Position numbers and translations under genes: made by a program | Origin: Cyanobacteriota bacterium | GTDB taxonomy: Bacteria; Cyanobacteriota; Cyanobacteriia; Cyanobacteriales; Spirulinaceae | Direction: 5' to 3' | Length of the DNA stretch: 54,416 nt | Assembly (NCBI GenBank): GCA_034189065.1 | Contig: JAXHVQ010000020.1 | Span: forward strand, 1-54,416 | Part shown: one piece after another, positions 26,551 to 27,383 of the stretch | Layout: each line of letters begins with the position of its first letter | Position numbering within the stretch: the first letter of the stretch is position 1 | Notes under the pieces: model-generated | Databases searched by the model: none | What the model was told of the DNA's origin: nothing | Seen by the model: the letters and a program-made list of their open reading frames with translations, nothing else

Positions 26551-27383
26551 GTTTCAGTCCCTCATAGGGATTAAGGAGTCTTGCGACTCTTGTCAGCGCG
26601 CCCTCATCAAGATCCTCGTAGTTTCAATCCCTCAAAGGGATTAAGGAGTCTTGCGACCTAAGCTTTCTAATAATGTAGGTAATAGTTGTATGTTTCAATC
26701 CCTCAAAGGGATTAAGGAGTCTTGCGACTTTTTGAGGATTAACCTCATACTCCTATCGGGAATCGGTTTCAATCCCTCAAAGGGATTAAGGAGTCTTGCG
26801 ACTTTACAACTAGCGTCGTTTTATCGGGCTTGCAAGTTTCAATCCCTCAAAGGGATTAAGGAGTCTTGCGACAGCCTAAAGCTGCAACTCGGTTATTCAG
26901 CTTTACCCGTTTCAATCCCTCAAAGGGATTAAGGAGTCTTGCGACTTGAATACGAATGGGATGGCGAGACCGAGTTTCAATCCCTCAAAGGGATTAAGGA
27001 GTCTTGCGACTCTACCCAGTCGCGTCGGGAATCCCGCAATTCGACTAGTTTCAATCCCTCAAAGGGATTAAGGAGTCTTGCGACTTATTGAGCAGAGATG
27101 GGTTTTTCAGAAATGCGGGTTTCAATCCCTCAAAGGGATTAAGGAGTCTTGCGACGGGACACCAATGGCCTGGAGAGTCAGGAGAAGCAGTTTCAATCCC
27201 TCAAAGGGATTAAGGAGTCTTGCGACCTTTCGGTCTATTCGAGAGGTTCGGGCGCTTCCAAGTTTCAATCCCTCAAAGGGATTAAGGAGTCTTGCGACCT
27301 GGTTCTGTCCCAAGGCATTACGCACCTCTTTGGTAGCTAGGGTTGTGTTTCAATCCCTCAAAGGGATTAAGGAGTCTTGCGAC
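26551..27383 (-). CRISPR. CRISPR array, 12 x 37-bp repeats (GTTTCAATCCCTCAAAGGGATTAAGGAGTCTTGCGAC on + strand), 11 spacers of 28-48 nt
   Basis: repeat starts 26551(variant), 26621, 26692, 26766, 26836, 26909, 26974, 27048, 27119, 27190, 27262, 27347; minus-strand form ends ...GGGATTGAAAC; degenerate repeat at low-coordinate end. Confidence 0.95.

Follow-up and report, generated by a model that had tools for sequence, protein, structure and literature searches.

The locus described here raises two questions, namely to which CRISPR system an array belongs when no cas gene accompanies it, and whether such an array could still be in use. The window, by which we mean the whole 54,416-bp stretch of DNA that was analysed, is an entire MAG contig. 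The array, its two terminal repeats and the genes on either side of it are located as follows.

25715-26527, plus strand: Uma2 (DUF820) gene that converges on the array (Pfam PF05685, E = 1.9e-21).
26551-27383, minus strand in the crRNA sense: CRISPR array of 12 repeats of 37 nt and 11 spacers, from repeat search, fuzzy scan and Rfam.
26551-26587, minus strand: leader-distal terminal repeat with 2 substitutions, ending ...CCCTATGAGGGACTGAAAC in the minus sense (Rfam, 26.2 bits).
27347-27383, minus strand: leader-proximal repeat 1, placed as such by its contact with the conserved leader.
27671-28363, minus strand: gene of a 230-aa glycine-zipper protein that carries a signal peptide, not a Cas protein, upstream of the leader and on the same strand.

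The feature is a genuine CRISPR array. A repeat search and a fuzzy scan of the window agree on 12 copies of the plus-strand repeat GTTTCAATCCCTCAAAGGGATTAAGGAGTCTTGCGAC, which reads GTCGCAAGACTCCTTAATCCCTTTGAGGGATTGAAAC in the minus sense, with a repeat period of 65-85 nt. Eleven of the 12 copies are identical, and the sole deviant, at 26551-26587, carries both of the substitutions found among the 444 repeat positions. No extra copy of the repeat was found elsewhere in the window with up to 8 mismatches allowed. The repeat contains a 7-bp palindrome, AATCCCT/AGGGATT, arranged on the sense strand as AATCCCT-TTG-AGGGATT and followed by GAAAC. The spacers measure 33, 34, 37, 33, 36, 28, 37, 34, 34, 35 and 48 nt (median 34); all 11 are mutually distinct, and none matches the rest of the window.

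An earlier note on this DNA had listed 12 repeats of 37 nt at 26551-27383 with spacers of 28-48 nt, an internal 7-bp stem, a single degenerate repeat at the low-coordinate end, and an Uma2 (DUF820) gene and a small secreted protein as the flanks, and each of these elements is borne out, the secreted protein by its visible signal peptide. The same note had called spacer 11, of 48 nt, unusually long, and this description has to be dropped. Spacers in related arrays have a mean length of 36.7 nt, a minimum of 31 and a maximum of 52, with 3 of 185 at 48 nt or more; given this long tail, the 48-nt spacer at 27299-27346 is unexceptional. It is noted that spacer 6 (26946-26973), with 28 nt, falls below the minimum of those 185 related-array spacers, which is a minor oddity. 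On the two flanks, the array-side Uma2 protein ends in a C-terminal tail of 14-aa tandem repeats (a 42-nt repeat, 3.3 copies) and gives a weak PADLOC match to PDC-S03, and the 230-aa protein is identical to NCBI MDY6782371.1 (locus tag SW833_07445) and is conserved in cyanobacteria.

The absence of cas genes was examined by three routes. A Pfam scan of the 40 largest and of 10 small intergenic open reading frames of the window found no Cas domain, and a PADLOC scan of the window's unassigned reading frames found no Cas match. A tblastn search of the window in six frames, for which two complete sets of type I-D Cas proteins served as queries, returned nothing below E = 0.1, and therefore no decayed cas remnants are present in the window. 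The earlier statement that the 54-kb window holds no cas gene is upheld by all three. Pfam scans also found no Tn7 or type III genes in the window. Its gene content is that of an ordinary cyanobacterial chromosome and includes an AcrB-type pump, two Uma2 genes, a Ser/Thr kinase, PFOR and HypF/C/D, as well as GluRS, a GH38 mannosidase, toxin-antitoxin pairs and a RAYT-like transposase. It should be mentioned that, as the window is the whole MAG contig, the term orphan holds at contig level only. A search for cognate cas genes with the Cas6 of Oscillatoria sp. HE10JO (locus L011, described below) gave matches that all came from other assemblies or samples, and extension of the window through its end proteins gave only Logan contigs of about 1.4 kb (run SRR24907501) or nothing.

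The repeat itself carries more information on the type of the system. Searched at a relaxed threshold against the Rfam family RF01318 (CRISPR-DR5), all 12 repeats match on the minus strand over the full model (positions 1-37 of 37), 11 of them at 34.6 bits (E = 0.0027 each) and the distal copy at 26.2 bits (E = 0.21), against a gathering threshold of 40 bits. At gathering stringency the repeats give no match, the best score being 5.4 bits short. The exact 37-nt repeat has no match in the genome and metagenome contig collections, and the pattern TCGCAA-N8-core, searched against metagenomes, found a single array, of the L011 type. The 3' 22-mer of the repeat, AATCCCTTTGAGGGATTGAAAC, is present at 12 genome loci, in Phormidium, Oscillatoria, Baaleninema, Cyanaurora, a Gloeobacteraceae MAG, a Coleofasciculaceae MAG and Nostoc. 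Over the whole repeat, these relatives are identical to the window repeat at 26-30 of 37 positions, and every difference falls within the 5' 15 nt. This 5' part (GTCGCAAGACTCCTT) is unique among all sequences searched, and the best whole-repeat match, 30 of 37, is to the repeat of Oscillatoria sp. HE10JO.

Several of these relatives have cas genes next to their arrays. In Oscillatoria sp. HE10JO the array directly follows the genes of Cas5d/Csc1, a type I-D Cas3', Cas6, Cas4 and Cas1d on the same strand; the Cas6 of this locus is 99% identical to one that NCBI names Sodalinema sp. The array of the Gloeobacteraceae MAG (L010) directly follows Cas1d. Complete type I-D operons followed by arrays of the same family are found in GCA_037025365.1 (L021) and on plasmid e of Pseudanabaena sp. 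ABRG5-3 (L002). All the cas-adjacent arrays found with the same repeat 3' half and the leader motif described below are of type I-D.

The published record agrees with this assignment. Repeats of the form ...AATCCCTAT[CT]AGGGATTGAAAC have been assigned to type I-D in Nostoc, Anabaena, Microcoleus and Microcystis (PMC4916379 Table 4; PMC4428289 Table 3). Many cyanobacterial 37-nt repeats of the form GTnnnAAnnnnnnnnAATCCCTAT[CT]AGGGATTGAAAC have been named 'DR5 (type I-D)' (PMC4916379 Table 4), and the same form in Microcystis is called 'DR1, subtype I-D' (PMC4428289 Table 3). The type III-B repeats of Microcystis belong to different families (PMC4428289). The window repeat has the hairpin followed by a ATTGAAAC 3' end on the sense strand, in agreement with the published family members. 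It shares with the CRISPR-DR5, DR5 and DR1 family the length of 37 nt, the AATCCCT-loop-AGGGATT hairpin and this 3' end, and with DR5 and DR1 spacers mostly of 33-37 nt; it differs in its loop, which is TTG in the array and ATC or ATT in the family. The repeat thus appears to be a member of the widespread cyanobacterial ...AATCCCTnnnAGGGATTGAAAC family, which is associated with type I-D, and its resemblance to Rfam CRISPR-DR5 is clear, at a score below the threshold. The earlier note had placed the repeat in the Cas6-processed ATTGAAAC class, and that placement is retained and can be narrowed to the type I-D-associated family through the published repeats and the cas neighbours of the relatives.

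A ATTGAAAC handle is common to Cas6-processed type I and type III repeats, and the array might accordingly supply crRNAs in trans to some other effector, either a type III complex or a CRISPR-associated transposon, the latter by drawing on a defence array. Cyanobacteria often have several systems (PMC4428289), and CRISPR-associated transposons can co-opt defence arrays (PMC11300857). We consider such a role very unlikely in view of the uniformly type I-D neighbours of the cas-adjacent relatives, the separate repeat families of Microcystis type III-B, and a window in which neither Tn7 nor type III genes were detected.

The direction in which the array is read depends on the intergenic region at its high-coordinate end, which can be divided into two parts.

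27384-27452, minus strand: conserved leader core, with TATAAT at 27452-27447 and the motif CGCGCAAATGAACCTTGAAAACTCCATA at 27435-27408.
27453-27670, minus strand: distal part of the intergenic region, not conserved, with a terminator-like hairpin and T-run at 27661-27620.

On the minus strand, within the 65 nt that precede repeat 1, the order of elements is TATAAT-GAGAGGACGTT-CGCGCAAATGAACCTTGAAAACTCCATA-...-repeat, and the motif of the window leader starts 49 nt before repeat 1. In an alignment with five other arrays, CGCGCAA..ACCTTGAAAAC..CATA is invariant. A fuzzy search located the motif in 7 arrays (the window array and those of L005, L009, L010, L011, L012 and L021), always behind a -10-like hexamer and at a distance of 86-87 nt ahead of the end of repeat 1. 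Three of these 7 arrays, L010, L011 and L021, directly follow cas1d-cas2. Stated for the family, the motif CGCGCAAnnnnACCTTGAAAACnnCATA starts 49-50 nt before repeat 1 in type I-D-family arrays of distantly related cyanobacteria. The window contains it a single time, and 100 shuffles did not produce it at all. Nostoc PCC 7524 and, in its type I-D leader, Pseudanabaena ABRG5-3 give weaker matches. Beyond about 65 nt the leader has no similarity to the other leaders. No description of the motif was found in the literature searched, and one may exist in other papers.

The leader has no -35 box, and for this reason a simple promoter scan made no call there. A terminator-like hairpin (27661-27630) followed by the T-run stands after the stop codon of the upstream gene, and the array therefore probably has its own promoter, which would lie in the leader. 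The motif shared with type I-D-adjacent arrays, the distal position of the degenerate repeat and the strand of the Rfam matches together settle the predicted orientation, with the leader on the high-coordinate side and minus as the sense strand. Minus-strand transcription from a leader within 27384-27670 had already been put forward in the earlier note, and the motif at 27408-27435, the -10 box and the minus-strand Rfam matches now support it.

Transcription from the plus strand was considered and rejected. The array begins only 23 nt after the Uma2 stop codon, and both the Rfam matches and the leader homology point to the minus strand. The fold is also weaker in the plus sense: the minus-sense repeat RNA forms a hairpin of 7-9 bp at -12.5 kcal/mol (z = -3.4 versus shuffles), and the plus-sense RNA reaches -8.1 kcal/mol (z = -1.1).

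From this combination of repeat family, leader and gene content, we propose, with a probability of roughly 0.7, that the feature is a working-type array of the cyanobacterial type I-D repeat family that is sited away from its cas genes. Transcription would start at the minus-strand leader promoter, with TATAAT at 27452-27447 as its -10 box, and the transcript would cross the 12 repeats toward the 3' end of the Uma2 gene. A Cas6 encoded elsewhere in the genome would recognise each repeat hairpin and, by analogy with type I and type III Cas6 systems, its cut would leave an 8-nt AUUGAAAC 5' handle on each crRNA. The crRNAs could then load a type I-D Cascade (Cas10d, Cas7d and Cas5d, with Cas3') for DNA interference. 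For type I-D, GTN-type PAMs have been reported. New spacers would be inserted by Cas1d-Cas2-Cas4 at repeat 1, beside the leader motif. In Cas1-Cas2 integration new spacers enter at the leader-proximal repeat, and the 48-nt spacer would be the newest of the array.

To place the array in its chromosomal setting, the window was compared with the contigs that carry homologues of the 230-aa gene. The unit that emerges from the closest of them is the following.

26528-27670, no strand assigned: 1,142-bp block made up of leader, array and a trailer of 23 nt, which the closest relative lacks at the syntenic site.

The 230-aa gene has its nearest homologue, with 87% amino acid identity, on a JGI contig (L016) that is syntenic with the window across the kinase, the 230-aa gene, Uma2 and AcrB, at 76-82% nucleotide identity. 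Its alignments to window positions 29671-27672 and 26529-25656 leave 7 nt between them. On that contig the two convergent flanking genes stand 8 nt apart, and the 1,142-bp block has no counterpart. The block is thus a presence/absence polymorphism between close relatives. No target-site duplication and no mobile-element gene is visible at the block in the comparison of the window with this contig. In three further homologues of the 230-aa gene (L017, 75% identity; L026, 67%; Lusitaniella L018, 63%) no array follows the gene. A 6.2-kb stretch without called genes beside the Lusitaniella homologue was taken as a candidate array and was rejected, being rpoC1/rpoC2. Since the array is also absent from these more distant homologues, a gain in the lineage of the window is weakly favoured over a loss in the relative.

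The clean presence and absence of the block between close relatives makes a tidy case in which to study how remote arrays arise. One reading would be that the 1.14-kb leader-array block was recently inserted as a self-contained unit without cas genes, exactly between the stop codons of the convergent genes. If true, type I-D arrays would disperse as leader-array cassettes, with no transposase and no target-site duplication. We consider this quite improbable. A dedicated mobility mechanism for the block is wholly conjectural, with no observation that speaks for one, and the indel is explained equally well by ordinary recombination or by a deletion in the relative.

The condition of the array and the targets of its spacers bear on whether it is still in use. 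All 11 spacers were searched against the INPHARED phages and the PLSDB plasmids (blastn, E <= 1), and 8 of them against IMG/VR with every 6th position left free, and no match was obtained in either search; none of the spacers matched any of the related loci that were fetched. This lack of protospacers, the lack of any cas gene or pseudogene on the 54-kb contig and the absence of the exact repeat from the genome and metagenome collections would be expected of a true orphan relic, the type I-D cas genes having been lost or never present and the array being functionless, transcribed or silent. Such a fate is unlikely, as the repeat is the same in 11 of its 12 copies and is preceded by an intact leader motif and -10 box. 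In addition, the flanks are about 20% (18-24%) diverged from the nearest relative; the block is missing there and in a more distant relative, so it is probably young. A young array, for its part, may look intact even without cas genes. On account of the near-identical repeats, the intact motif and -10 box and the diverged flanks, we take the array to be either young or under selection. Its state fits the preferred type I-D reading, in which cas genes elsewhere in the genome would make use of it, better than that of a decaying relic.

The window was assembled from a metagenome, and repeats are hard to assemble, so that an artefact in which the array or its placement results from a chimeric join in the MAG contig has to be weighed. 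It is extremely improbable. A chimeric assembly is excluded because both flanks are adjacent to each other in L016, and the spacers are all unique and the repeat, with 37 nt, is short. Logan contigs of run SRR24907501, moreover, match parts of the window at 99.9-100% identity; one of them (L019), equal to window positions 28767-27432, independently spans the right-hand junction between gene and leader and extends 239 nt into the leader at 100% identity. It should be mentioned that this contig breaks off precisely where the leader motif begins, 49 nt short of repeat 1, and not at the first repeat. As a weak hint, such an end could reflect a second copy of the leader in the sample, or equally low coverage or strain variation.

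We have compared the window array to known arrays with and without adjacent cas genes. The type I-D loci of Oscillatoria sp. HE10JO, the Gloeobacteraceae MAG, GCA_037025365.1 and Pseudanabaena share its repeat family and the orientation of the array relative to the leader, and in the first two the 3' 22 nt of the repeat are identical to those of the window. The leaders at these loci carry the ACCTTGAAAAC motif at the same distance from repeat 1, after a -10-like box. The difference is one of position: the arrays of these loci directly follow cas6-cas4-cas1d-cas2, whereas the window array stands between the Uma2 and glycine-zipper genes with no cas gene within 26 kb.

Closer counterparts in this respect are found among arrays that lie apart from cas genes. 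Phormidium sp. OSCR (L009), Cand. Cyanaurora vandensis (L012), an uncultured Phormidium (L013) and the Microcystis DR1 arrays have repeats of the same family, and L009 and L012 also share the conserved leader. The neighbours of L009, L012 and L013 within the inspected stretches of at most 8 kb are housekeeping genes (aldo-keto reductase, MltG, ClpB). Many Microcystis DR1 arrays have no adjacent cas genes (PMC4428289), and orphan arrays are widespread in filamentous cyanobacteria (bioRxiv 10.1101/2024.10.13.618069). The mini-array of Nostoc cyanophage N-1 likewise has a repeat of the DR5 family and no adjacent cas genes. It differs from the window array in being phage-borne, with 5 repeats, whereas the window has no phage genes, and its repeat match covers only the 3' 23 nt.

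Cas-remote arrays are common in cyanobacteria, and the window array is an ordinary example with a previously unseen 5' repeat variant. The array alone matters little, as one more cas-remote array in a well-documented repeat family. Of wider use is the leader motif, since a -10 box followed by CGCGCAAnnnnACCTTGAAAACnnCATA offers a simple way to orient and to type cas-remote arrays of the type I-D family.

A number of further observations were made on the genes of the window. The other Uma2 gene, at 15823-16440, matches the PADLOC candidate defence family PDC-S17 (E = 5e-70), and the type I-D operon of Pseudanabaena also holds an Uma2 gene (L002, 12088-12642). The Uma2 family is very abundant in cyanobacteria, with two members in the window, and its presence near type I-D arrays is for that reason probably a coincidence. 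Three toxin-antitoxin-like pairs are located at 30866-31388, 31559-32191 and 40827-41689, comprising a ParE with its antitoxin and two DUF433/DUF5615 pairs. A DUF433/DUF5615 pair also lies inside the type I-D operon of GCA_037025365.1 (L021, 4275-4909), between cas3' and cas10d. A 198-aa open reading frame within 36413-37118 has a weak IS200-like Y1 transposase match (E = 1.9e-5), with a pair of 31-nt palindrome-containing repeats beside it at 37053-37118, and the region looks like a RAYT with REP-like elements.

Other repeated elements occur in the window at a distance from the array. At 17214-18171 on the plus strand, between hisG and a gene of an S13 peptidase, there are six tandem units of about 171-176 nt each. 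The last 68 nt or so of each unit contain a stem-loop and a T-run, and the changes in the stem are compensatory between copies, so that the region resembles a series of small-RNA genes in tandem. The Rfam matches here are limited to weak ones to NsiR1 (RF02399) at 17941-17995 and 18117-18172, with 19 bits against a gathering threshold of 39 (E = 0.5-0.7). ARAGORN places a tRNA-Ile(AAT) at 19570-19644 on the plus strand, abutting a tRNA-Met at 19644-19717; as Rfam supports only the tRNA-Met, the tRNA-Ile call is probably a false positive. A 77-nt tandem repeat of 5.2 copies (94% matches) occupies 44445-44841 in the hypF-hypC intergenic region, and a 110-nt tandem repeat of 2.3 copies (97% matches) lies at 51575-51828, beside the tRNA-Asp at 51401-51477. 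Finally, three tandem paralogues of the AIM24 family are encoded at 3783-5869 on the minus strand, and a 35-nt GC-hairpin repeat of 3.2 copies (5138-5252) separates the second from the third.
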